Below are positions 4,177-16,565 of a stretch of DNA of 64,000 nucleotides, in pieces (within the stretch, counting starts at the first letter, position 1; each line of letters opens with the position of its first letter). The position numbers and the translations under genes were made by a program. The stretch comes from a virus (lineage: Duplodnaviria; Caudoviricetes). The stretch covers positions 25,319 through 89,318 of IMG/VR virus record IMGVR_UViG_3300037461_000711, one strand, 5' to 3'. The notes beneath the pieces are model-generated. The model had not been told where the DNA came from and ran no database searches. It saw nothing but the letters and a program-made list of their open reading frames with translations.

Positions 4177-4463
4177 GTCTTTCTCCTAATCACCAGTTGT
4201 TTTCTTTCAGGTTGGTTGACAAGTGTGAGTTCCCCACCTTGTTTCATCATGACATAGCGATAGCCGCATTTATTGCACATAAACATTTCAATGCCGTGGA
4301 ACTGTGCGTACCGAAACAGGGTGAAATGGGTGGGGTCGTTCGGGCAGGGCACGATGCAGCTTTCGGTCATCTGAACTCCTTCGCTAATGCACTGCCTGAC
4401 CTTTCGAATTAATGCTTTTCGAATTTCAACTGGCACGTTTTCGAGAGAGGTTTTCATAACCAC
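4173..4463 (-). CDS. small Cys-containing protein with C-terminal KQLVIRRK tag
   Basis: CPND...CNKC; ends PERKQLVIRRKT. Confidence 0.6.
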   Translation of the reverse strand: MVMKTSLENVPVEIRKALIRKVRQCISEGVQMTESCIVPCPNDPTHFTLFRYAQFHGIEMFMCNKCGYRYVMMKQGGELTLVNQPERKQLVIRRKT

Positions 4464-5812
4464 CCTTCGTCTAAGTACAGACAGATTCGTTCCCCAAAGT
4501 GTTTAATGAGGTAGTTGTGGGAACTGTCGAAAAAGTCAACTATCGAAACCCGGTCTTTATCGTCGGTTCTTCGCAGTCCCCGGCCAATGTTCTGCAAGGT
4601 TACGATTTCTGATTTACCCAAGTGGGCCAGCACGATCATGTTCAGGCTCGGTATGTTGACCCCTTCTTTCCAGACCGTGGTGCAGATAGCCCCGAATAAT
4701 TTCTTTTCAATCAGCTTGGTTTTGATTTTAACCCGTTCGAGACTTGGGGTAGCACCATTGACAAAGGGTATATCCACCCCTTTCTTCATGAGTGCCGATT
4801 TAATCAGGTTGCCGTGGTCGATGCGGTTTACCATGATGAGCACGACCCGCTTGTGATGGATGTTGCTCTTAACGATAGTTGCGATTTTATCGGTTCTTTC
4901 ATCATTCTTGACGATGCCGTGTTCCACCACTTCTTCATAGCTGCGGTAGAGTTGGCGAATTCTGAAGTCCTCACTCAGCTTGATAATCTTGATCTTGGGC
5001 TTTGCAATAATGTTCAACTTGGCGGCTTCGTTGATGGTCAGTCGCGCTACGGTCGGCCCGATAAGCCCCTCTAATGCCATTTCAGCTTCTTTATTTACGG
5101 GCTTTGTGGCTGTAAAGGCCCAACGGTACGGGGCCAATAGAGTGCCCAACGCTCTGCCATAGTTGCCGTCGATGGAAGACACATGATGCCCTTCATCGAC
5201 AATGACACAATCGAAGTAGGTCATGTAGTCATCCGGGTTGTATTTGATGAAACTCTGAACGGTGGCAACCACGATGGTTTTCTTTAACGGTTGAAGGTGC
5301 CCCTCAATTATCATCTGGTGGTTCAGGTTGAATTTGTGAAGCTCCTGAGAAGTCTGCATTACAATGTCTTTGGTATGGGCAAGAATGAGGGTGCAGAAGT
5401 CTTTTGGTAGGGTGGTAATCAGGCCCATTTGCAGAATCGTTTTGCCCGACCCGGTGGGGGAAACCACCACCCCCCGCTCTGCTTTCAATGCTTGGTCGAT
5501 TAGCTTTAGTTGGTCTGGTCGAAATTCGATACCTTTCAAATCTGGGATTTTGAACTCGAACTTGGCTTTGTCAAACATGGTTGTGATCTTGGTGTTGGAG
5601 TTGGCTTTTCTCACTCGTGGAATGAACCCCGCCAAGAAATAATGATAGCCGTCTTTCTGCTTTTTGATTAGGGACTTCGAATACTCGTACCTACGCATGG
5701 CCCATTGGCCTTTGCGCCAGTACGATGCGGTGTAGCAGAGGGTGGAGGCCAGCTTCTTTGACCCCTCTTCATTCGTTCGGGCTTCGATTGGGTTTACGAT
5801 TTCTATTTTCAT
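4454..5812 (-). CDS. superfamily 2 helicase (UvsW/Res-like)
   Basis: Walker A SPTGSGKT, DEGH box, motif III TAT, motif V EGVNIPSL, motif VI QNIGRGLR. Start placed at MKIEIVNP (5812, ATGA overlap). Confidence 0.9.
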   Translation of the reverse strand: MKIEIVNPIEARTNEEGSKKLASTLCYTASYWRKGQWAMRRYEYSKSLIKKQKDGYHYFLAGFIPRVRKANSNTKITTMFDKAKFEFKIPDLKGIEFRPDQLKLIDQALKAERGVVVSPTGSGKTILQMGLITTLPKDFCTLILAHTKDIVMQTSQELHKFNLNHQMIIEGHLQPLKKTIVVATVQSFIKYNPDDYMTYFDCVIVDEGHHVSSIDGNYGRALGTLLAPYRWAFTATKPVNKEAEMALEGLIGPTVARLTINEAAKLNIIAKPKIKIIKLSEDFRIRQLYRSYEEVVEHGIVKNDERTDKIATIVKSNIHHKRVVLIMVNRIDHGNLIKSALMKKGVDIPFVNGATPSLERVKIKTKLIEKKLFGAICTTVWKEGVNIPSLNMIVLAHLGKSEIVTLQNIGRGLRRTDDKDRVSIVDFFDSSHNYLIKHFGERICLYLDEGWL

Positions 5813-6156
5813 AGTAGCTTCTTCCGAATTACGAGTTGTTTCTTCTTTTTGCGAATCACCAATTGTTTCTTTGTCTTGATCTGAATGGAGGCTGCTTGGC
5901 CCCCTACGGTGCAGTAGCAAATCTCCTTTCTCTGCCGTGCTTGGCAGACCTTGAGGTAGACCCATTGGTCCCTATCGCCACACCAGAAGATGTTAGTGGG
6001 TTCAAAGGCTTCGCAGCTTTCGTCTCCCTCATTGACGATGCTTTCTTTTACCGGGCAAACTCGGTTGATGATGATGGTCTGTTTGCCCCCGCCGATATTG
6101 ACTTTCTCTTCGACACGTTCCGCACCGTGGTACTTCAGGCACAGTTGGCAAAACAT
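5809..6156 (-). CDS. Cys-rich protein with duplicated KQLVIRKK tag
   Basis: Multiple Cys pairs; ends KTKKQLVIRKKKKQLVIRKKLL. Confidence 0.65.
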   Translation of the reverse strand: MFCQLCLKYHGAERVEEKVNIGGGKQTIIINRVCPVKESIVNEGDESCEAFEPTNIFWCGDRDQWVYLKVCQARQRKEICYCTVGGQAASIQIKTKKQLVIRKKKKQLVIRKKLL

Positions 6157-6160
6157 GGCT

Positions 6161-6394
6161 TCACCTTATGGTTTTGTGTGCGATGTTTTTCTCAAGCCAC
6201 TCTTTGTTTCTGCGTTCCTTCAAGAGGTGAGTAACCAACCACGAGAAAGAACGCTCCCTTCGAGCGGCATACTCTTTTGCCCATTCGATTAATTTAGCGT
6301 CGGATGAAAAGCTGGCTATCACCTTGCTCGATTTTGCCGATATGGTCTGGTAAATGTTCGCGTTCTTTTCTTTCTGAATGCCTTTTTTTCTCAC
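6161..6394 (-). CDS. ribbon-helix-helix (Arc/CopG-like) DNA-binding protein
   Basis: KVIASFSSDAKLIEWAKEYAARRERSFSWLVTHLLKE has the RHH strand-helix-helix pattern. GTG start at 6394 after SD GAAGGGGGAG. Confidence 0.6.
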   Translation of the reverse strand: MRKKGIQKEKNANIYQTISAKSSKVIASFSSDAKLIEWAKEYAARRERSFSWLVTHLLKERRNKEWLEKNIAHKTIR

Positions 6395-6414
6395 AGATAG
6401 CTCCCCCTTCAAAT

Positions 6415-6474
6415 AAATATTTTCTCGTGAAACAAATATTTTCTCGTTAAAATTTTCTCGTAAAATTTTCTCGT
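6415..6474. repeat. four tandem AAA(T)ATTTTCTCGT-type direct repeats, candidate operator
   Basis: Copies at 6415-6428, 6434-6447, 6449-6461 and 6462-6474, directly upstream of the RHH gene. Confidence 0.85.
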
Positions 6475-6537
6475 TGAAAATCTGAAGACCCTTATGTTTC
6501 GGGTTTTACGCAATCTTAATAATGATTAATAGAAATG

Positions 6538-6897
6538 TCAAGGGGCTAATTTTTGCAGGGTGGTGAGGGTTTTTCTGAGGGCTTCGAGAAACCTGATTTC
6601 TTCTTCTATCCATTCAACGGTTTTGGGCTGGTCAGAAAATATTTCTATCGTGTCGTTCTCAAGGTGGATTTTTCTGAGGTTGATATCCGATACGGCATCG
6701 GCAATTCTGCGGTTTTCAGAAACCATTTTCTGAAAGCGGGTGGTGGGTTCTTTCGTTTCGGGTTCCAGGTTGATGGGGGCAATGCTGTTTTGAATTCTGT
6801 CGATGTTGCTTGAGATGATTCGAACTTCGTGATCCTGTAATGGTCTGTCAATCGGTACTACCATGTTCAGGTTGATCTTGATTTCGGGGTTCGTCAT
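6538..6897 (-). CDS. hypothetical protein
   Basis: 119-aa ORF with SD AGGAGG. Confidence 0.6.
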   Translation of the reverse strand: MTNPEIKINLNMVVPIDRPLQDHEVRIISSNIDRIQNSIAPINLEPETKEPTTRFQKMVSENRRIADAVSDINLRKIHLENDTIEIFSDQPKTVEWIEEEIRFLEALRKTLTTLQKLAP

Positions 6898-7249
6898 TTT
6901 CAGCCTCCTTCAATAGGTTGATTGTGCTGGTTCTGATCTGCCAGACTTCGGCCCAACGATTATCACAAAAGCAGAAGCGTATGCCGGTATCCACAAACAG
7001 TTCGGTCTTTCTCAGGTCTTCAATCGTGCTTCTCATTCTGCCGCATGAGCATACGACAAACTGGTTCTTTTGAAGACAAATTCTGTCATAGCCTGAAATC
7101 TCATAGTTGCTGTCGATTCTGGTATAGGGATGACCCTTACCCTGGATGCCGACCCCTACTATGGATGACGTGTCGCCTGTATATAGTACGTGAAGCTCTA
7201 CGGGCTGCTGCTGGAGAACGATTTGGCCGATGGCTCTTTTTATGGACAT
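6848..7249 (-). CDS. hypothetical protein
   Basis: Start placed at MSIKRAIGQ (7249) after a GGGGG SD, just downstream of the sRNA. Confidence 0.45.
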   Translation of the reverse strand: MSIKRAIGQIVLQQQPVELHVLYTGDTSSIVGVGIQGKGHPYTRIDSNYEISGYDRICLQKNQFVVCSCGRMRSTIEDLRKTELFVDTGIRFCFCDNRWAEVWQIRTSTINLLKEAENDEPRNQDQPEHGSTD

Positions 7250-7261
7250 GGATTTGCCCCC

Positions 7262-7370
7262 TAAAAAGTGAATTGTCGCGGGGCTTCGAAACCGGGGACC
7301 ACCCCCGGTAAGGGAGGTACATCGTGGGCTAACGCACGATGGAAGCCCCGCGACAAACCTTGGATTTGTA
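7262..7370 (-). ncRNA. candidate three-way-junction small antisense RNA
   Basis: Perfect 15-bp closing stem (7273-7287/7342-7356) and two 7-bp inner hairpins (7291-7309, 7320-7341). Minus-strand unpaired segments are CGUUAGCC (loop) and UACCUCCCUU (junction). A promoter lies immediately upstream and a UUCACUUUUU tail follows. Ends are estimated. Confidence 0.75.
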
Positions 7371-7376
7371 ATGGCA

Positions 7377-7406
7377 ATTATACGGCACCAGAGCATCCAA
7401 AGTCAA
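7377..7406 (-). promoter_or_regulatory. sigma70-type promoter for the sRNA
   Basis: Minus strand TTGACT (7401-7406)-18 nt-TATAAT (7377-7382); predicted start site near 7370. Confidence 0.75.
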
Positions 7407-7487
7407 CGATTCATAGCTACCACCAAATTGAGTAACCCATTAATCCCGACCACGAACTCCTTCTTATTCGTGATCGGTGTTGATGGG

Positions 7488-7655
7488 TTAATCCGTTGCT
7501 TCGACGAAAAACTCGCATAGGTGCTCCTCAAACATATTGCATTCGAGCGAGCATTCAATGCAAGCTTCGTCCATGAGGGTTTTGGCTTCTGGGTCCGCAT
7601 TGTCGATGTAGTTTGCACAGTTGATGCATTGTTCCGAGTAGCGGCTGAATGTCAT
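7488..7655 (-). CDS. small Cys-rich protein (55 aa)
   Basis: MTFSRYSEQCINCANY...CIECSLECNMFEEHLCEFF; ATGA-coupled to the upstream gene. Confidence 0.55.
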   Translation of the reverse strand: MTFSRYSEQCINCANYIDNADPEAKTLMDEACIECSLECNMFEEHLCEFFVEATD

Positions 7656-7930
7656 GAGCATCTCCATTTCTTGACGGTGCCGATGATTTGGTCTCCATCC
7701 ATTAGAAGGGTGCTGCTGCCGATTGCCCTGGTATTGTGCATGAGAAGAAAGCAGGGCTTCCAACCCGTTGTTACCCCCACGTATCCACGCTTTGTTTCAC
7801 CGTATCTTGTTTTGACGATAATGCGCTGTCCACTACAGAAGTAGGGTATGAATTGCTTTGACAGGTCTGAATCGTCAAAATTGGGGATACGGCTTTTTTT
7901 CTCCCTCAACCAATCTTCAAAATTTCTCAT
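7652..7930 (-). CDS. hypothetical protein
   Basis: 92-aa ORF, ATGA-coupled on both sides. Confidence 0.6.
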   Translation of the reverse strand: MRNFEDWLREKKSRIPNFDDSDLSKQFIPYFCSGQRIIVKTRYGETKRGYVGVTTGWKPCFLLMHNTRAIGSSTLLMDGDQIIGTVKKWRCS

Positions 7931-8208
7931 GAGTCACCTCCAACGGCTTCTCTTACTGCAATTTCGCAGTATTCAGCGATGCCGTCTTCCCCTTTCGCTC
8001 GCAGGGCTTCACATGCGAGCATGAGGCGCTCCAGAAGTTTGGGGCTTGCGGCGATCAGTTGAGCGTTTCTGTCCAACTCACAGAAATCTTTGAAGTTGGG
8101 GTTTCCATACTTGTCTTGCCCGTAAGTGAGATAGAACGCCCCACTTGGAGTGACAATGCTTCTGCCAGCTTGCAACTTCCATGGCCCAGGCGTGTGTTTG
8201 GTTCTCAT
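7927..8208 (-). CDS. hypothetical early protein
   Basis: MRTKHTPGPWK..., an N-terminus type common in small phage proteins; preceded by the conserved leader. Confidence 0.7.
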   Translation of the reverse strand: MRTKHTPGPWKLQAGRSIVTPSGAFYLTYGQDKYGNPNFKDFCELDRNAQLIAASPKLLERLMLACEALRAKGEDGIAEYCEIAVREAVGGDS

Positions 8209-8291
8209 AGCTACCTCCCTTGGTTAGTGGTTATCCAAGGCTAATGCCTTGTGTCTATGCTCAAAGTTTCCCTTGAGCATAGGGCAAAACA

Positions 8292-8705
8292 TTACCAATT
8301 GGTTATGCGTTTTCCGGTTGCCGTACAACGCATGGGGGATGCACAAACCTTACATATTTCATTTAATCTGCAAACTAATTCGTCAAATGGTTTAAGATAG
8401 GTTTTATCGGAAAGCTGCACAACACGATTTTGTTTGTCAAGAAAAAAAGCGGAACCCATTGCCATAACAAATTCATTCAGGTTTGGATGTTTCGATAAAA
8501 TTTTTCTAGCTTCTGATTCGATCAATTTGTAGGAAATAATGTCGATCTGTTGACAATGAAAGTCGATAGTTTCCAGGGCTTTTATTTTGTTTTCTACATT
8601 GGGTTCTAAAATTGAGAGAATAAGCTCCCTATTGTCTTCAAAAAAATCTCTGTCGCTATCATAATATCCAGAAAAATCTGAGTCTTTTCTCTTTTTAATT
8701 TTCAT
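8292..8705 (-). CDS. hypothetical early protein
   Basis: 137-aa ORF with the conserved leader. Confidence 0.7.
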   Translation of the reverse strand: MKIKKRKDSDFSGYYDSDRDFFEDNRELILSILEPNVENKIKALETIDFHCQQIDIISYKLIESEARKILSKHPNLNEFVMAMGSAFFLDKQNRVVQLSDKTYLKPFDELVCRLNEICKVCASPMRCTATGKRITNW

Positions 8706-8815
8706 AGCTACCTCCCTTGTTTGTTGTTAGCTGCATTAGGGGCGTTTTATCGTGCCCTTTATCGTAAGGCATGATTACCCATGCCTTACTGTAAAAAACA
8801 CGCATACAAGCCCTC

Positions 8816-9526
8816 TCAGTCGTCCTTTTTGCCTAATTTAATCAACATTTCGGGTTCAAATTTTGAAACATGGGCAATAATGTTTTCTGGTTTGTCTTGC
8901 GACTTGAACGACCAATCACATCCATGAATTACATTGCCTTTACAATTCAGATATAATTCTCCCTCGTTGAATGAAATCACGTCTTCTTCCCAAATATTAT
9001 AAAGAAACGGTGTTTTTTCGACAACTTTTTTACCCCAATTTTCAGCCCGTCCTTCAGAGATACAATGCTCATAATCGGGTTTCCATTTATCGTATTTGTA
9101 GTGTACTGTCAGATTATTTTCTTCGGCAAAATCTAAAAGCTTATGGGCGTCCGGGTTGCCACAGTGAAATTGATCGTTCGAAATATCCACGCTTGAAATT
9201 TCGTTATCATCACACCAAGCATGTAGACGTTCCCAAACATTTAAGAATTTTCTTGTGATCCGTTCAGCATTGGTTGCAATGTAATAATTGCCAACTCCTA
9301 CGCTGTGATTTCTGCAAGCGCCAATGAACAGACCAATAATTTCCGGTGCAAGAGTGGGTTCCCCACCAGTGAATGTGACAGTATCCACGTACTTGAAGTG
9401 CCCAAGAAGTGTAGATATATTCTCGTAGGTCTGTCTCATCCGTTGTCGTTGACCTCTAAGACAATGGTAGCACTCCAGGTTGCACCATCTTGTGACCTCA
9501 ATGATTACGCTCCCTTGTAATTTCAT
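8816..9526 (-). CDS. radical SAM protein
   Basis: CxxxCxxC (CNLECYHC), GGEP motif, IATNA strand; conserved leader. Confidence 0.85.
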   Translation of the reverse strand: MKLQGSVIIEVTRWCNLECYHCLRGQRQRMRQTYENISTLLGHFKYVDTVTFTGGEPTLAPEIIGLFIGACRNHSVGVGNYYIATNAERITRKFLNVWERLHAWCDDNEISSVDISNDQFHCGNPDAHKLLDFAEENNLTVHYKYDKWKPDYEHCISEGRAENWGKKVVEKTPFLYNIWEEDVISFNEGELYLNCKGNVIHGCDWSFKSQDKPENIIAHVSKFEPEMLIKLGKKDD

Positions 9527-9638
9527 AGCTACCTCCCTTGTTTGATTGTGATTGTTAGCCCAGATTCAATTAGAATCCGTGACCGGGCAAAAATATTTTC
9601 TCGTTGTTTTTGCCCGGTGGCTGATCCTAATTCTCGAC

Positions 9639-10574
9639 TTATTCTTCCACTTCAACTTTTCTCACAGACATGGCCCAATGGATGTCGAACTGTCCAACAT
9701 CAGTGAGCAAAAACAGGTGATCGAATTTGTACGGCAGAATTTCCTTTGCCAGTTTCAGGCATTTTTTGGGGGTATCATCCTGACCCCGGTGAAATCCATT
9801 TTCGAACCGGGTGCAGTATGACTCTTCGCTTTCCAGACACTTGAACCCGGCAGCTTCGACGTGTTCTTGCATCCAGTATGGTAGTGCTTTGTTAAGCGAA
9901 TTCAGGTAATGCTCGATCACGTCATCTGCTCCATCCTTTTTCACGCATTCGTGACAGAGTATTTCGCAGTCCGAAACCCATACCCATGAAGTTTGCCAAC
10001 CGTAGCTGTCGGCGGAAGTTCTGACGGCTTTGTAACAATTACAGCAACCAGTCCATTCGTCTGACCATTCAATCGAAATATTGCCTTGAAAGAATTTGTC
10101 GATCCAATCGCAAAGCTTCTTCATTTTGGGTGGGTTCCAGTTGGCGGCGATTGTGGGTATGTCGTCATAGCCCATTTCCGAAACACCATTGTAGAAGTCT
10201 GCATATTCGCCAATCCGGTCGATGTATTCGAGAATGTCTGAAATCGAAACTTTCTCCCACCTGCGGCGTATTCTTTTCTCGTACTCCATACGAGCAGTAT
10301 TGGATGCCGCTTTCAAAAATTCTATCTGCATGGGGGTGAGATCCTCTACTGGCACGAACTCCCGAATGCCGGGCAATTCGATTTGAACTTCTTTCCAGAG
10401 CAGTTCGGCGGTTGTTTTTTCGGCTTGAGCAAATCGGAAAAGCTCAAGAGGGTTGTTATGAACATAATATTGACGTCCATCTCTGCCGATAATAACCACC
10501 TTTCCCGGCAAATTTGCATACCGCAAAGCGATAGCAAACTCTCCATCGGTTTTCACCTTGAAGTCTTCGTACAT
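9639..10574 (-). CDS. hypothetical early protein (Cys motifs CCNC, CHEC)
   Basis: 311-aa ORF with the conserved leader. Confidence 0.7.
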   Translation of the reverse strand: MYEDFKVKTDGEFAIALRYANLPGKVVIIGRDGRQYYVHNNPLELFRFAQAEKTTAELLWKEVQIELPGIREFVPVEDLTPMQIEFLKAASNTARMEYEKRIRRRWEKVSISDILEYIDRIGEYADFYNGVSEMGYDDIPTIAANWNPPKMKKLCDWIDKFFQGNISIEWSDEWTGCCNCYKAVRTSADSYGWQTSWVWVSDCEILCHECVKKDGADDVIEHYLNSLNKALPYWMQEHVEAAGFKCLESEESYCTRFENGFHRGQDDTPKKCLKLAKEILPYKFDHLFLLTDVGQFDIHWAMSVRKVEVEE

Positions 10575-10667
10575 AGCTACCTCCCTTAGTTAGATGGTTG
10601 AATGTTAGCCCAAGGGTTAATCCCTTGCGTTTGCCCATAGCTCCTTGTCTATGGGCAAGACAAAAGA

Positions 10668-10868
10668 TTAAAGACTTGTCACGAATTCGTATCCTATGCC
10701 GTCGATTTCAACGACATACCCCGCGAAGTCTTCCCTCTGAACCCAGAGTTCTTTCTTCTCCGATTCGTCGATGAGAATGATTTCTCCATCTTCGTTCGGC
10801 CCTTGGTAGACTTCGTACTCGGTGTCTTCCAATGGTTCCCTGGCCTGACTGCCAATCTGCCGAATCAT
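10668..10868 (-). CDS. small acidic protein
   Basis: 66 aa, SD AGGAG, rich in Glu/Asp. Confidence 0.6.
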   Translation of the reverse strand: MIRQIGSQAREPLEDTEYEVYQGPNEDGEIILIDESEKKELWVQREDFAGYVVEIDGIGYEFVTSL

Positions 10869-10879
10869 TTTTGATCTCC

Positions 10880-11074
10880 TCAGTCGTTAAAGATTTGCAT
10901 GAATGCTCCGCATGCCTTGCACTTGTAAGTCCATTTAATAATCTCGCCAGACTTGTCCCGAAGGGGCTGATCTAACGTGAAGAATGTCTGACATACGGCA
11001 CACTTCATCCCGGTGTGTTCGAGTGTTGACATTTCGGTGACGTATCCGTTGTCGGTCTTTGTCCAGATGGTCAT
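10880..11074 (-). CDS. small Zn-ribbon protein
   Basis: CAVC...CKAC; conserved leader. Confidence 0.7.
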   Translation of the reverse strand: MTIWTKTDNGYVTEMSTLEHTGMKCAVCQTFFTLDQPLRDKSGEIIKWTYKCKACGAFMQIFND

Positions 11075-11172
11075 AGCTACCTCCCTTGGTTGGTGTTATC
11101 CCCCTCTTGTTTTGGGGGTAAAGTCTCAAGTCTGTCCACGAGATAAAAATTTCTCGTGAACAGGTTCAGGCT

Positions 11173-11769
11173 TTACTCCTTTTCATCGGGCAGAACAAGT
11201 TCGCCGGTTTCCACAGAGAATACGGGGTACGGGGCTTTGCCATCCTCAAACCAATCGTGGCTGAAGCAATAGCCCTTGGCGTATCCAGCGTTTTCGGCGT
11301 GTGATTTGTACGCTTCTCCATAAGCATTGGGTGCTATCTCAGAAACAGTTTTCAACTGCTCCTTGACTTCACCCACCGGCTTGAACGGATTCATGAGGTA
11401 AACAGCACCCGGCGCACACGGAGAGCAGAACTGTGCATAGGTGAAATATAGCGACTTTGTAATAAATATGTCGCCGTCATCCCCGCATTCTGCCGTGTAC
11501 TCACCATCGTCCACGTACCACGAAACAGGTTCGAGCATGTCAAAGTCTCCATCGTCGAATTCGTGCCCACAATCGGGGCAAGTCTCCGGCACTTCTTGGC
11601 CGATTTCCCGCTCGCATTCGGGGCAGTAGTAGACGTAGTTGGGTTCCGAACTGTCGGCCCACGCTTGGAGAACCTCATTCTGGCTGATTACCCCATACCG
11701 AATGTTTTTCTCGTGGTCGATGTTGGAAATACCTCTGCCATAGTCGATACCAGCATACGGTTCCTTCAT
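11173..11769 (-). CDS. hypothetical early protein with Zn ribbon
   Basis: CPEC...CPDC and later CSPC; conserved leader. Confidence 0.7.
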   Translation of the reverse strand: MKEPYAGIDYGRGISNIDHEKNIRYGVISQNEVLQAWADSSEPNYVYYCPECEREIGQEVPETCPDCGHEFDDGDFDMLEPVSWYVDDGEYTAECGDDGDIFITKSLYFTYAQFCSPCAPGAVYLMNPFKPVGEVKEQLKTVSEIAPNAYGEAYKSHAENAGYAKGYCFSHDWFEDGKAPYPVFSVETGELVLPDEKE

Positions 11770-11876
11770 AGCTACCTCCCTTGTTGGTTGTTGTTGTTAG
11801 CCTAAGAGCGTATCCTTAGCTCTTAATCCAAGGCTGTCATGCCTCTATATACGGGATGACAGCCTTGTGTTAAAAA

Positions 11877-12134
11877 CTAAGCGTGAGCGGCGCGGGCAAC
11901 GATCCAGAGGTCGAGAACCTCTTCCAGAGATTTGCCGTGGCGCATGGTGCCGGGGTGATCCGTAGTGTAGCGGGTCAAGTGACTGAGAATAGAAGTCCTC
12001 AGAAAACCTCCCGGCTCGACTTTCGACGTATCGAATCCACCAAAGTCGGTGATGAAATCCAGGTAATCGAAGATCGCATCGAGACTGTAGGGATTCGACG
12101 TGAAAAGCCTGGGCATTCCATACACGTTTAACAT
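11877..12134 (-). CDS. hypothetical early protein
   Basis: 85-aa ORF with the conserved leader. Confidence 0.65.
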   Translation of the reverse strand: MLNVYGMPRLFTSNPYSLDAIFDYLDFITDFGGFDTSKVEPGGFLRTSILSHLTRYTTDHPGTMRHGKSLEEVLDLWIVARAAHA

Positions 12135-12208
12135 AGCTACCTCCCTTGGTTAGTTGTTAGCACTCCATTCAGCCCATGACTTCCCATCATGGGCTGTAGC
12201 AATGCTAA

Positions 12209-12295
12209 CTAAAAGGAAAACATAAATACAACCATGAAAAAGATACAGACAAAAATCAGAATCCCACCGATGATGTCCTTGGCTTCTTGTGTCAT
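12209..12295 (-). CDS. 28-aa single-pass membrane peptide
   Basis: Manual translation MTQEAKDIIGGILIFVCIFFMVVFMFSF*; ATGA-coupled to 12292..12510; below the ORF-track cutoff. Confidence 0.55.
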   Translation of the reverse strand: MTQEAKDIIGGILIFVCIFFMVVFMFSF

Positions 12296-12510
12296 GCCGT
12301 CCTCACAAAAGAGATTGATTTGTGATTGCCAACGCGGTCGATCCAGTGAACATCGACCGCATCCCCAATTTCGGCCATGTCAAAGACCGGATCATACGTG
12401 ACGTGCTTATAGCCCAAGCACTTGACCAGTCCTTTGATGTAAGTGTAGACCTGACCGATTTCAATTTCCCCGAAGATGGCACTCCAGAATTTCATGGGTC
12501 TGTTTTTCAT
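12292..12510 (-). CDS. hypothetical early protein
   Basis: 72-aa ORF with the conserved leader. Confidence 0.65.
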   Translation of the reverse strand: MKNRPMKFWSAIFGEIEIGQVYTYIKGLVKCLGYKHVTYDPVFDMAEIGDAVDVHWIDRVGNHKSISFVRTA

Positions 12511-12581
12511 AGCTACCTCCCTTTGTTAGTGGTTAGCGTTCAAGTCCGTGCTCAAAGTTTCTCTTGAGCACAGGTTCAACA

Positions 12582-12842
12582 CTAACTTTCCCGGCGTTTG
12601 ACAAGATAATACTTGCAATCGCACATGATAGCCTGATGTCCACAGATTGGGCATCGCTCGTTATCACAGCCGGGATGATGAGGCTTGCCGAGTTTTGCTC
12701 TACAGTCATGGCAGCGTTCCTGATCGCAGAGGTTAGAAGTGTCCCTTTTGTAAAGCTTTTTGCCTTTGATTTTCTTGGCATGAGTCCAGATACAACCATC
12801 TGAAGTCAACATTTCCTGCTTGCAAAAATCGCAAATTGCCAT
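12582..12842 (-). CDS. Cys-rich small protein
   Basis: The leader places the start at MAICDFC (12842); CDFC, CHDC, CPIC and CDC motifs. Confidence 0.7.
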   Translation of the reverse strand: MAICDFCKQEMLTSDGCIWTHAKKIKGKKLYKRDTSNLCDQERCHDCRAKLGKPHHPGCDNERCPICGHQAIMCDCKYYLVKRRES

Positions 12843-13007
12843 AGCTACCTCCCTTGGTTGGTGTTTACTGAATCGTTCCATCTGCTCTGTGCAGGAGGGT
12901 CGCGCCATTACCACTTCTCCCTGCACAGGCACATCTAACGATTCATAATGATTACCTCTCTTTCCCAAGAAATTTCTCGTGGCAGAGCCTTCCAAGAAAC
13001 TTCTCGA

Positions 13008-13916
13008 TTAGTTCCGCAGATGGTCGAAATGCCTTGCAAGCACAAACGCCATCTGCTCTTCCCGCTCTTTTCTGCCCGATGAGTCCTTGACTTCGTGGGT
13101 GATCCACTGAGTCAAGATGCTATTCATCGTCCAGGCAGAAACAGGTTTGCCGGTGTTGAACATGCTCTCCAGGGTGATGCCGGTTCCGGTTTCGGGCAAG
13201 GCCAAAATCTTTTCGGTCTGCTTTTCCGAAATCGGCAGCGCCTCAAAGATTTCCTCGGCCTGGGCCTTTTCGATCATGAGCTTGGTCCATGAGCGCCACA
13301 GTTCGTGCTCTTCTTCCATGGTCTTGATGCAAGTGTTCAACTGCTTGACCACGGCGTCCATACTCAGACCTTGCCGATGCTTCCGTTTGAAATGCTGGAG
13401 AACCTTGGTCGATACCATGCCGTTTGAACAGCGGAAGACCACTGCCCCGCCCGTCCCGGTCAATTGGGTCTGCGAGTCATACGAATTTTTGAATCCGATG
13501 AAAGGCTCGATGACGTCCTTGCCGATCTTCAACTTCTTGGCTTCCTTCATCTCGGGGAAGAACGCCCGAACGAATGCCTTGGCTCCCTGGTCGTACAGGT
13601 TCACCTTGAATTCAGGCACTCCCCAATGCGACCAGTTCGAAGTGACTTCCCGCATGAGCATGTGCGTTACCACCTCATGCGGGACGAGCTTGTAGTGATC
13701 GGTCACGAAGTTGGGGAAGACCATGCCCTCATCTCCGTTGTCGATCACGACCGCGTTCCACTTCTCGGCCAAGTGCTCGGCACCGTTCCCGATCCAGACC
13801 GCATCGAGATAGGCATTGGGCCATTTGACGTCCTTAAATTGGGCGTGCATTTTGGCTTTGATGTCCTCCACGTGAGCGGCATCTTCCAGAAGCTTGCTGA
13901 GTTCTTCCTGTGTCAT
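13008..13916 (-). CDS. DUF932-like protein
   Basis: The leader places the start at MTQEELS (13916); FKNSYD...VFRCSNGMV is the DUF932-type signature. Confidence 0.7.
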   Translation of the reverse strand: MTQEELSKLLEDAAHVEDIKAKMHAQFKDVKWPNAYLDAVWIGNGAEHLAEKWNAVVIDNGDEGMVFPNFVTDHYKLVPHEVVTHMLMREVTSNWSHWGVPEFKVNLYDQGAKAFVRAFFPEMKEAKKLKIGKDVIEPFIGFKNSYDSQTQLTGTGGAVVFRCSNGMVSTKVLQHFKRKHRQGLSMDAVVKQLNTCIKTMEEEHELWRSWTKLMIEKAQAEEIFEALPISEKQTEKILALPETGTGITLESMFNTGKPVSAWTMNSILTQWITHEVKDSSGRKEREEQMAFVLARHFDHLRN

Positions 13917-14026
13917 AGCTACCTCCCTTGGTTTGGTGTTATGAGGTGGGCAAATCCCCCTCGGTGAAAGCACGAGAATCCAGAGAAATATTTTCTCGTA
14001 AAAATTTTCTCGTGCTTCCAACGAAA

Positions 14027-14728
14027 CTAATTTGCCGATATGCGACTTCTTCCAGAGGCAAGGTTCAAATTGTTTCCATCAGCATAACCACGTGCAAGCG
14101 CAGAATTGTCCCCAACAGAGCGGGGTCGCATCTTCCCAAGCTTGGGGTAAACTTCATTTATTTTTGCTTGCACCAAAGCTTTAGAAATTACGACCAAATC
14201 CCGGCACGTGTTGTCTAAGGCATCGTTCACTTTTTTGTACAAATCCTCAAGACGCTCGTTCACGCGACAAACCATTCCGTAGGCATAGGCGCGTTGCTTC
14301 CTGATGCCTTTGGGGTAGGCTTCCTCGGCCCATGAGCCTATCTCTAATCGCAAACGCGAAAAGAAATAGTCGATCATCTCCAAATCATCTTTAGAACCGA
14401 AGAAACGCAGACTGCTCCGATGATTATGAACGATGATTTTTGAATTGAAGCACCGGGCAATCCCTGAACCGAGGTGAATCTCCCAATCGGCTTCCTTGTC
14501 GAACAAGTCTTCAAAGGTGTCCTTGACCTGATCGGTAGCCTTTTGGGGTTTCGGTTCCTTTGACCGCATCTCCAGCGAACTGATTTGCCATTTGAGCATG
14601 AGCTTTTCCGCTGCAAACTGTGCAGCATTGCGCTCACCTTCCGTAGCAGCCGGGTCCGCAGCCAATTGCATACACTTCAAAATCTTCTCCATGGCTTGCT
14701 CTCTTAATACGTGATGAGATGAGTCCAT
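14027..14728 (-). CDS. DUF2786-like protein
   Basis: EKILKCMQLAADPAATEGERNAAQFAAEKLMLKW matches the DUF2786-type N-terminus; leader-defined start at 14728. Confidence 0.7.
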   Translation of the reverse strand: MDSSHHVLREQAMEKILKCMQLAADPAATEGERNAAQFAAEKLMLKWQISSLEMRSKEPKPQKATDQVKDTFEDLFDKEADWEIHLGSGIARCFNSKIIVHNHRSSLRFFGSKDDLEMIDYFFSRLRLEIGSWAEEAYPKGIRKQRAYAYGMVCRVNERLEDLYKKVNDALDNTCRDLVVISKALVQAKINEVYPKLGKMRPRSVGDNSALARGYADGNNLNLASGRSRISAN

Positions 14729-14780
14729 ACTAGCTACCTCCCTTGTTGGTTGTGGGTTTCTCTCAGTAGACCATGGCGGG

Positions 14781-14888
14781 GTGAACGGCATTCAGTGAGT
14801 GAACGACATTCAGTGAATGAGGTAAATTCACTAACTGAATCTGATTCAGTGAATGAACGATATTCACAGAATGAACGATATTCAGTGA
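14781..14888. repeat. six tandem 18-bp units built on TGAA-N5-TTCA
   Basis: Units start at 14781, 14799, 14817, 14835, 14853 and 14871; consensus RTGAACGAYATTCAGTGA. Confidence 0.85.
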
Positions 14889-15040
14889 ACGAAATTTCAT
14901 TCACTAAATACAATTCATTTTTGCCATAGTCTACTATCACCTTGTTAGCCATTTTATAGGTTTTAACCTATACGTTGGCGCACTATCAAGCGAGTCGTGG
15001 TCGTGCCGTGATAATGCGCCAGATATAGCTTAAAACTGTT

Positions 15041-15517: not shown

Positions 15518-15699
15518 GTTTTTACCTCTCTTTTAGTGTTAGTTTAAGGTTATTTAGCAAAAATTAACAGAATGCCGAAAACAATAGACAATAGCCAAAA
15601 AACCAAGTCTACTTTAATCAATAATACCTCTCTTTCGTTATAGGGTTTTTGGGAATTCTTTAGGTAATAGCATGTAATAAAGACTAGGCCAACATAAAG

Positions 15700-15999
15700 T
15701 TAAATACAGTAAAATGTATTATTACAATCGTGGCCAAAAACTTGTTTAACTCTTGCATTTATAACTTCGTCAACATCAACATCAATCTCATTATTCAAGT
15801 TCGAAAGTTCACATAAAGTATTGTCTAAAATGCCTTGATTCAATTCAAGTATAGTTGAAATTTCATAAAGTAAATCGTTCGGTAGATTTTCGGCATTATT
15901 AGTTGAATCATTATCAATTAAAATTTGTTGAAGAGTAGACAAGGCAAAAAACATTAAATCACCGGCAAGCTTAACTTTATCGCTTATAGGTTTTCGCAT
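15700..15999 (-). CDS. AT-rich hypothetical protein
   Basis: 99 aa; preceded by the second leader class ending TAGGTGAT. Confidence 0.55.
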   Translation of the reverse strand: MRKPISDKVKLAGDLMFFALSTLQQILIDNDSTNNAENLPNDLLYEISTILELNQGILDNTLCELSNLNNEIDVDVDEVINARVKQVFGHDCNNTFYCI

Positions 16000-16027
16000 T
16001 TTATCACCTATTTTTAGTTGGGAATTT

Positions 16028-16282
16028 TTATTTGTTTTCGTAATACTTCAAAAATTTTTGAATTTCATTTTTTGAATTATTGGGCATTAAATTTATATCT
16101 GAATTCAAAATCATATCAGCGAAAGTCAACAACATTTCATTCAAATTTGCATTTTTGTTTTTGCCTTCGAGAATGTCAATTATTAGGTTTTTGCAAAGCT
16201 TAGAATAGTCTGAAATATGGGTAAACATATTATCATATTTTTTCAAAACGTCGTTTAATTCATCTGCTATTGTTTTCGGCAT
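16028..16282 (-). CDS. AT-rich hypothetical protein
   Basis: 84 aa; same 30-nt leader as 15700..15999. Confidence 0.55.
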   Translation of the reverse strand: MPKTIADELNDVLKKYDNMFTHISDYSKLCKNLIIDILEGKNKNANLNEMLLTFADMILNSDINLMPNNSKNEIQKFLKYYENK

Positions 16283-16382
16283 TTAATCACCTATTTTTAG
16301 TTGGGAATTTTTATTGCCTAGTCTTTATTACATGCTACCACCTAACCATATTTAGTGTCTTTTTAGTATCAAGCGATTAAGG

Positions 16383-16565
16383 TTATTTTGAAAAGTAAAA
16401 TTTACGTTTCAACTCTCGATCATAGCAAATACATTCTATTCTGTGACACAAAAAACAAGCTTTTTTAGTTGGGAATTTTTTAAATTTAAAATAAGGTTTT
16501 TTGCTTGGTTTTTTAGGTAAAAATTTAAGAAAAGTCGAATTCGGCATATTGTAAGCGATAGGCAT
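16383..16565 (-). CDS. small basic hypothetical protein
   Basis: 60 aa, SD TAGGTGAT, flanked by a 24-bp inverted repeat pair. Confidence 0.4.
   Translation of the reverse strand: MPIAYNMPNSTFLKFLPKKPSKKPYFKFKKFPTKKACFLCHRIECICYDRELKRKFYFSK

Follow-up and report, generated by a model that had tools for sequence, protein, structure and literature searches.

The characterised mechanism nearest to the element described here is that of c4, the 77 nt antisense RNA of phages P1 and P7 (PMC12197685), and the nearest described sequence pattern is that of the start-associated sequences (SAS/ESAS) of the Cluster K mycobacteriophages (Pope 2011, PMC3203893). The element is a structured RNA predicted on the minus strand of a 64,000 nt window, comprising bases 25319-89318 of the 89,318 bp genome of an uncultured phage from a wetland metagenome (IMG/VR record IMGVR_UViG_3300037461_000711). 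The genome is complete and has 127 bp terminal repeats. Ten unpaired bases of the RNA are the exact complement of the core of a ribosome-binding leader found at 11 early genes of this phage. Positions given below are those of the window unless the genome is specified.

The c4 RNA is a structured phage RNA whose short unpaired complements pair around the ribosome-binding site of an mRNA of the phage itself and block translation, and the action proposed here is of the same kind. Citron and Schuster reportedly described in 1990 that c4 pairs through two segments. However, c4 acts on a single message, icd/ant, from its own operon, serves lysogenic immunity and is released by RNase P, whereas here a standardised leader marks 11 dispersed targets in an 89 kb phage that is apparently lytic, and a three-way junction takes the place of the c4 fold. 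Membership of the c4 or CI families, raised in a first-pass annotation made from the sequence alone, was not supported. An Rfam cmscan of 6000-9000 on both strands, with E values up to 10, returned three chance-level matches, none of which was C4 or lay on the element, and the element is not a member of the c4 family. A riboswitch or other known RNA class also found no Rfam match, no junction strands are conserved as a ligand pocket, and ARAGORN detected no tRNA or tmRNA.

In the Firmicutes, small RNAs such as Staphylococcus aureus RNAIII and the Rsa RNAs, with their UCCC loops, and RsaE/RoxS use unpaired C-rich segments to pair with the G-rich Shine-Dalgarno sequences of several mRNAs and block initiation. 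These RNAs are host-encoded and recognise ordinary sites through 4-7 nt seeds, whereas the RNA described here is phage-encoded and matches a dedicated 10-16 nt address. In phage T4, the RegB endoribonuclease cleaves GGAG and the RegA translational repressor binds the ribosome-binding site, and there too a phage shuts off many early messages through a ribosome-binding-site signal. RegB and RegA are proteins, while the effector proposed here is a base-pairing RNA. Compared with known antisense control of ribosome-binding sites, what is new in the proposal is control that is regulon-wide, addressed to a Shine-Dalgarno sequence and placed at the boundary between temporal gene classes.

SAS is a 13 bp sequence, GGGATAGGAGCCC, that lies over the Shine-Dalgarno sequence 3-9 bp before the start codons of 11-19 non-structural genes; the intergenic gaps at SAS genes are long, and an inverted repeat lies upstream of about half of these genes (PMC3203893). 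Its role was still unknown in 2024-25 (PMC11373665, PMC12699233), and in the literature that we searched an RNA partner for SAS was neither proposed nor tested. The leaders in the window share with SAS a fixed motif that spans and exceeds the Shine-Dalgarno sequence, A/C-rich spacers and a single copy in the opposite orientation away from a gene start, and the hairpins that precede them are analogous to the ESAS inverted repeats. Forward and reverse copies number 11 and 1 here, 10 and 1 in a related genome (G001, see below), and 16 and 1 in the Cluster K phage Anaya. However, the leader here is AAGGGAGGTAGCTATG, not GGGATAGGAGCCC, the phages and hosts are unrelated, and the RNAs are without sequence or structural homology. 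The leader system is an analogue of SAS rather than a member.

An inverted leader copy in a structured RNA

The leader core, AAGGGAGGTA, has 12 exact matches in the window, where 0.14 are expected, and the same 12 are the total for the whole 89,318 bp genome. Eleven are on the minus strand, at 8212-14744, and a single copy, at 7310-7319, is on the plus strand. Ten of the minus-strand copies form AAGGGAGGTAGCTATG and the 11th carries GCTAGTATG (full form AAGGGAGGTAGCTAGTATG). Each leader consists of a Shine-Dalgarno site, a fixed spacer and the start codon, and is preceded by an A/C-rich spacer of ~10 nt and, further upstream, by a hairpin. A second element, (G)GCTAAC, precedes 6/11 leaders, as GGCTAAC in three and GCTAAC in three more, when ~0.04 occurrences of GCTAAC would be expected from its genome frequency. 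Late genes instead use AAGGAGGTGA, found at 29378, 29890, 30611 and 35550.

On the minus strand, the inverted copy is the junction strand J2/3 of a three-way junction, in which it lies between hairpins P2 and P3 above a closing stem, P1, of 14-15 bp (Table 1). The predicted free energy of the fold is -59.5 kcal/mol (z = -5.5), and 0/200 shuffled sequences folded as well. The junction has a predicted unpaired probability of 1.00 and an opening cost of 0.01 kcal/mol, and the motif in the P2 loop has an unpaired probability of 0.83. When the whole leader of the downstream gene was folded, the minimum-energy structure left the junction free and unpaired with the downstream Shine-Dalgarno sequence. 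A sigma-70-like promoter upstream scores 11/12 and ranks first among the 20 promoter-like sites predicted from sequence in 5.5-16.5 kb, which would place the transcription start near 7370, ~14 nt before P1, with ~19 nt between the -10 hexamer and P1. The first-pass annotation had described a near-consensus TTGACT-18-TATAAT promoter, a three-way junction with two 7 bp hairpins, an unpaired junction segment, and its exact complementarity to the core of 11 leaders at 8.2-14.7 kb; all four stand.

The same cannot be said of the U-rich tail. The sequence UUCACUUUUUA does not abut the stem but begins several bases past it, and no intrinsic terminator was scored at the element. Measured against what is expected of a stand-alone small RNA gene, the element has its own predicted promoter but not a directly following intrinsic terminator. 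One near-identical partial contig was found among four DNA runs, and it has 0 changes in 7291-7360 and three at 7368-7370.

Table 1. Positions in the window of the RNA element, the early-gene leaders and adjoining features
Feature	Position	Strand	Details or basis
Downstream gene P0005	6848..7249	-	133 aa; adjoins the RNA in 6/6 phages
3' flank: UUCACUUUUUA, then AGGGGG Shine-Dalgarno of next gene	7250..7272	-	non-canonical as a terminator
Three-way-junction RNA core, 84 nt	7273..7356	-	fold and homologues
P1 3' strand GAAGCCCCGCGACAA	7273..7287	-	fold, compensatory changes
Hairpin P3, ACCGGGG-GUGGU-CCCCGGU, 7 bp	7291..7309	-	followed by 3 unpaired bases, then the P1 return strand
Junction J2/3 UACCUCCCUU, 10 unpaired nt	7310..7319	-	exact complement of leader core
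Hairpin P2	7320..7341	-	stems 7335-7341 and 7320-7326 (7 bp), loop CGUUAGCC at 7327-7334
P1 5' strand UUGUCGCGGGGCUUC	7342..7356	-	P1 is 14-15 bp
Sigma-70-like promoter	7377..7406	-	-35 TTGACT 7406-7401, 18 nt spacer, -10 TATAAT 7382-7377
Decayed leader copy GGTGGTAGCTATG	7412..7424	-	directly ahead of -35
Long hairpin closing the leader-bearing block, upstream of the promoter	7434..7489	-	equivalents in relatives
Leader 1, AAGGGAGGTAGCTATG	8206..8221	-	motif count
Leader 2	8703..8718	-	GCTAAC box 8726-8731
Leader 3	9524..9539	-	GGCTAAC box 9554-9560
Leader 4	10572..10587	-	GGCTAAC box 10604-10610
Leader 5	11072..11087	-	motif count
Leader 6	11767..11782	-	GGCTAAC box 11796-11802
Leader 7	12132..12147	-	GCTAAC box 12156-12161
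Leader 8	12508..12523	-	GCTAAC box 12532-12537
Leader 9	12840..12855	-	motif count
Leader 10	13914..13929	-	motif count
Leader 11, AAGGGAGGTAGCTAGTATG, first of block	14726..14744	-	motif count

Homologous RNAs in related phages

New in this analysis are five homologous RNAs in related uncultured phages. When the RNA region and the capsid region were used to query the 50,697 deposited phage genomes of INPHARED with blastn, no DNA relatives were returned. Relatives were found in metagenomic contigs through the helicase, at 62-66% identity, and in two cases (L340 and L341) through a profile of the protein encoded downstream of the RNA. With the loci L029, L030 and L111, this brings the number of phages with the RNA to six, including that of the window. 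L029, which is also L114, is the complete 89,207 bp genome G001, whose helicase is 62% identical to that of the window phage.

In all six phages the RNA is directly upstream of a homologue (~30% identity) of the 133 aa gene P0005, with the next start codon 25-70 nt after it, and the same three-way junction forms when each sequence is folded on its own. The stems differ: there are at least four P1 sequences (UGUCGCGGGGCUUC, GGGCUGGGGAUUC, GGGCUGGAAAGUCUGG and GGGCUGGGGACUC), six of P2 and four of P3. RNAalifold recovered P1 and P3 from a plain MAFFT alignment, with a compensated double change in 19/25 pairs; P2 is misaligned there and its support comes from the single-sequence folds. CCUCCCU is invariant in J2/3 of 6/6, and UAGCC is found in the first hairpin of 6/6 (as GUUAGCC in three, and as AGUAGCC, CAUAGCC and CUAGCC). 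The parts that vary are J3/1, in length and sequence, and the P3 loop, and J1/2 is 0-2 nt. A -10-like hexamer is present 13-19 nt before P1 in every locus with upstream sequence. The element is thus a real, conserved, structured RNA, and its complementarity to a private ribosome-binding leader is specific, statistically unlikely and twice replicated.

The second replicate is G001, where AGGGAGGTA is present in 10 forward copies and one reverse copy, the latter being the RNA junction. A pattern in which all copies are leaders except one, inverted in a structured RNA, has therefore been seen independently in two complete genomes. On the gene-sense strand of L029, L030 and L111, CCTCCCT occurs in the RNA only. 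The leaders of L029 and L030 have, in order, (G)GCTAAC, a spacer rich in A and C, (C)AAGGGAGGTA, a stretch of 3-6 nt whose last bases are GCT (CCACC at one gene), and ATG; L029 has ~10 genes with such a leader, and L030 has six or seven. Several of the hairpins upstream of the leaders are of the form CAAGGnATTAnCCTTGG, both in the minus-strand gaps of the window at 8230-14000 and in L029 and L030, and may be processing sites, attenuators or protein sites.

These comparisons bear on whether the element acts as DNA, as a cruciform, an origin or a recombination or insertion scar, or is a chance inverted copy with no role as RNA. In the window it is flanked by an 8 bp direct repeat, TGGATTTG, at 7249-7256 and 7361-7368, and the antisense strand folds about equally well in 2/4 cases, such that thermodynamics alone cannot distinguish the strands. 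The flanking repeats noticed at first pass are indeed present, but they are not conserved in the relatives, and a mobile-element scar was rejected for that reason. The stems carry compensatory changes, and the G-U pairs in P1 of L030 and L111, which would be A-C mismatches on the other strand, are weakly consistent with transcription in the gene direction. Moreover, it is the unpaired segments that are conserved, the opposite of what a cruciform would lead one to expect, and a second genome likewise has just one inverted copy. We consider a DNA-level or chance origin very improbable. A 12th leader, serving a plus-strand gene, was also considered and rejected, as the GTG mini open reading frame that follows the plus-strand copy is not conserved in the relatives.

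The position of the RNA raises a different alternative, namely that it is a cis-acting 5' untranslated region that stabilises the mRNA of the replication operon or controls the next small gene, for instance through pairing of CCUCCCU with that gene's own Shine-Dalgarno sequence or through protein binding, and that the match to the leaders is a by-product of their Shine-Dalgarno character. The U-run is displaced 7-36 nt from the stem (20-36 nt in the relatives), its position is not conserved, and neither the window nor the relatives have a conserved terminator. As the start codon is within 25-70 nt and the position next to the same gene family is kept in 6/6, we conclude that the RNA is probably the 5' leader of the replication-operon transcript, and the discrete small RNA of ~100 nt of the first-pass annotation was not supported. 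Stem-loops at 5' ends are known mRNA stabilisers, and CCUCCCU could pair over 4-6 bp with any of the downstream Shine-Dalgarno sites. However, these sites are not the same across the six phages (AGGGGG, GAGGUA, GUGAGGG and GGGGUA are found), while CCUCCCU, with an unusual extra C that matches the early AGGGAGG, stays fixed. Its conservation is therefore tied to the leaders and not to the RNA's own gene. Together with the whole-leader fold, which leaves the junction free, this makes an exclusively local role rather unlikely, and such a role would leave the conserved UAGCC loop and the enriched GGCUAAC boxes unexplained.

Between P1 and the next Shine-Dalgarno site there is a conserved A/U-rich motif, ACAYUUUUA, which might serve for processing. 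In the window (7250-7272) and in L029, L030, L111, L340 and L341, the next gene has a conserved start region, GAGG(G/T)(C/A)ATCCA(N0-3)ATG; in the window, the TGGATTTG repeat overlaps its ATCCA motif. Leader remnants, GGTTTAGCTAT, are found just before or within the RNA promoter in L029, L030, L111 and L340, and with the decayed copy GGTGGTAGCTATG of the window (Table 1) they suggest that the RNA module originated within an earlier intergenic region of the leader type, or took its place.

In the more distant relatives L233 and L234/L235 (helicase ~45% identical), ordinary strong Shine-Dalgarno sequences were found, with no anti-leader RNA upstream, and no such RNA was seen in the short upstream part available for L112 (helicase 58% identical). 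The replication module of L234, where the helicase is ~44% identical, includes a 572 nt non-coding gap (13650-14230) with a TTGACA-type promoter, terminator-like hairpins and a CCUCCUU segment; this gap and the RNA described here are not homologous. Searching for single-protein loci with the helicase gave no match, a profile search of IMG/VR returned only helicases with at most 40% identity, none with an RNA of this kind, and scans of IMG/VR for the exact leader gave single chance matches only. Structure-pattern scans returned only G001 from IMG/VR and, among the matches listed, nothing new past filtering from metagenomes.

Predicted pairing and a proposed early-gene switch

The duplex of the junction with the leader has a predicted energy of -15.8 kcal/mol, and after the cost of opening each leader the net values are -7 to -14 kcal/mol in 11/11. 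An early leader pairs at -17.4 kcal/mol with the RNA junction and at -13.2 kcal/mol with a 16S tail, whereas the canonical late site AAGGAGGUGA pairs at -11.5 kcal/mol with the junction and at -18.4 kcal/mol with the 16S tail; this tail is a generic one. The extra G of the leader is thus predicted to weaken pairing with the ribosome and strengthen pairing with the RNA, and the weaker pairing of late genes anticipated at first pass is supported, with the late value being that for AAGGAGGUGA. Across the genome, the leaders fill 11 of the 12 best predicted duplexes. The only non-leader site predicted to pair equally well, GGAGGGAGGUGG, is on the plus strand at genome ~402-425, 24.9 kb before the window, and reaches -17.1 kcal/mol using G-U pairs.

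These values also bear on whether the RNA is a general mimic of the 16S 3' end, with an exposed CCUCC that soaks up Shine-Dalgarno sites, including those of the host, or binds a ribosome-related factor. The junction UACCUCCCUU does resemble an anti-Shine-Dalgarno tail and would pair at ~-11.5 kcal/mol with canonical sites, and the Firmicutes RNAs with C-rich loops have many targets. Against this, pairing with the phage's unusual leader is favoured by 6 kcal/mol over that with canonical sites, owing to the extra C, and the top predicted targets in the phage genome are precisely the 11 leaders. A general mimic therefore appears unlikely.

The second contact proposed at first pass, between the P2 loop and GGCUAAC/GCUAAC, fared less well. 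Six leaders do have a box, in agreement with the first-pass count, but a net gain from the loop contact (-7 to -8 kcal/mol) is predicted only at the leaders at 9539, 10587 and 11782, and the contact is thus an option for a subset and not a general second anchor. The target box lies 15-25 nt upstream of the Shine-Dalgarno sequence, while the junction site is matched in 11/11 targets. As the two contacts occur in the same 5'-3' order on both RNAs, they cannot form a single colinear duplex, as the first-pass annotation had recognised.

We infer with moderate confidence that the RNA acts in trans as an anti-leader and prevents ribosomes from binding to the messages of the 11-gene early set. Its transcription, on the minus strand, would begin shortly before P1, and the three-way junction would hold UACCUCCCUU permanently single-stranded. 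In the cell, UACCUCCCUU would pair with the start-associated leader, AAGGGAGGUA, of the 11 early genes, covering the Shine-Dalgarno sequence and keeping ribosomes off, and the duplex might also be a substrate for a double-strand RNase. For a subset of leaders, pairing could start between the hairpin loop GUUAGCC and the GGCUAAC box upstream. Late genes, whose site is the canonical AAGGAGGUGA, would escape, the extra G of the early leader being the address that the RNA reads. The RNA probably acts as the 5' end of the replication-operon transcript, from which it is possibly cut free. Firing of the replication promoter, by which the next gene class would be turned on, would in this way deliver the brake on the previous class, and the start of one class would switch off translation of the one before it by RNA-RNA pairing.

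The identical complementarity could also work in reverse: abundant early mRNA would bind the 5' leader of the replication-operon transcript and so set the timing or level of replication-gene expression, the early leaders being the sponge or activator. The RNA is physically part of the 5' end of that operon, and 11 leaders per early transcript facing one anti-leader favours titration of the RNA by the leaders. However, the junction is at least 60 nt from the downstream start, where pairing would have no obvious effect, and a leader kept constant across 11 unrelated genes is more simply seen as a control site that these genes share. We think the reversed direction improbable.

Several observations weigh against an anti-leader RNA that silences the early set. 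One RNA must titrate 11 sites per early transcript, and its sigma-70-type promoter could fire together with the early genes. The loop contact is favourable in only 3/11 leaders, and UAGCC is partly paired in L340. The fold and CCUCCCU are kept in 6/6, but the covariation that the first-pass annotation sought was not seen: in the three phages for which the leader core and the junction core are both known, neither varies, which is co-conservation without true covariation, and a CCUCC-type sequence could be kept for another reason. The lack of a conserved terminator counts against a free small RNA, and no RNA run was found among the public sequencing runs that contain this phage. Finally, the Cluster K parallel considered next is only partial. 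The mechanism of early-set repression, read from sequence, is nevertheless plausible.

In Anaya (JF704106; L331), the reverse SAS copy is in the 385 nt gap between gp96 and gp97 (47780-47980 region), where the gene-sense strand reads CCUCCUAUCC in the 10 nt loop of a GC-rich hairpin within a structured region (z = -4.7). The gap region is conserved in 182 Cluster K genomes, mostly unannotated, and late transcription in Adephagia starts in the equivalent gap (PMC11373665). Among the Cluster K loci compared (L331-L338), an exact anti-SAS loop is found only in K1-type phages. Ekdilam keeps a CCUCC-rich loop, those of Syra333 and Bryler are only partly complementary to an unchanged SAS, and the loop is degenerate in K6-type phages and missing in Hurricane and SirPhilip. 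We tentatively suggest, as a possibility held with much less confidence, a general principle of phage timing in which the 5' end of the next class's transcript displays, unpaired on a stable fold, the mirror image of the previous class's private ribosome-binding address, and in which the same logic explains SAS.

The timing of phage gene expression is generally attributed to transcription factors, sigma factors and a small number of RNA-binding proteins. If the proposal is correct, an RNA that reads the ribosome-binding-site address of a gene class would be a simple, evolvable and portable way to end early expression, and the purpose of SAS, a question open since 2011, would have a concrete and testable answer. 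Cluster K mycobacteriophages are used in tuberculosis genetics and phage therapy, and the leader and RNA pair could serve synthetic biology as an orthogonal translational switch.

Gene layout and neighbouring repeats

The RNA lies at the head of the replication operon, within a run of minus-strand genes that extends from ~16.5 kb down to base 1 and falls into three groups. An AT-rich block (16.5-15 kb) is followed by the leader-bearing early block (14.7-7.5 kb), made up of small genes mostly without known function, and from 7.25 kb leftwards by the replication module, with an SF2 helicase at 4454-5965. The RNA marks the boundary between the second and third groups. The replication modules of relatives include a primase, a DnaB-like protein and a UDG-PolA fusion.

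The product of P0005, the 133 aa gene next to the RNA, matched no Pfam or PHROG family, and its AlphaFold model (pLDDT 69) had no Foldseek match in the PDB at E <= 0.001; these searches gave no hint of an RNA chaperone or nuclease. Its closest homologue, P0127, is 84% identical. The stem of the long hairpin at the end of the leader-bearing block gave a weak, chance-level RybB-like match in Rfam on the opposite strand.

The AT-rich block has a repeated leader of its own on the minus strand (15990-16480), AAAAATTCCCAACTAAAAATAGGTGAT(T/A)AAATG, which is found twice before ATG (near 16320-16280 and 16030-15998), with a partial copy near 16478 and partial copies of AATTCCCAA near 15650 and 15350. 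This block may be a separate, immediate-early class. Directly upstream of the first leader-bearing gene, the minus strand at 14755-14925 contains at least five direct and inverted copies of TTCACTGAAT(G/A)(T/C)CGTTCA, which resemble an operator or an array of iterons that would govern entry to the leader regulon.

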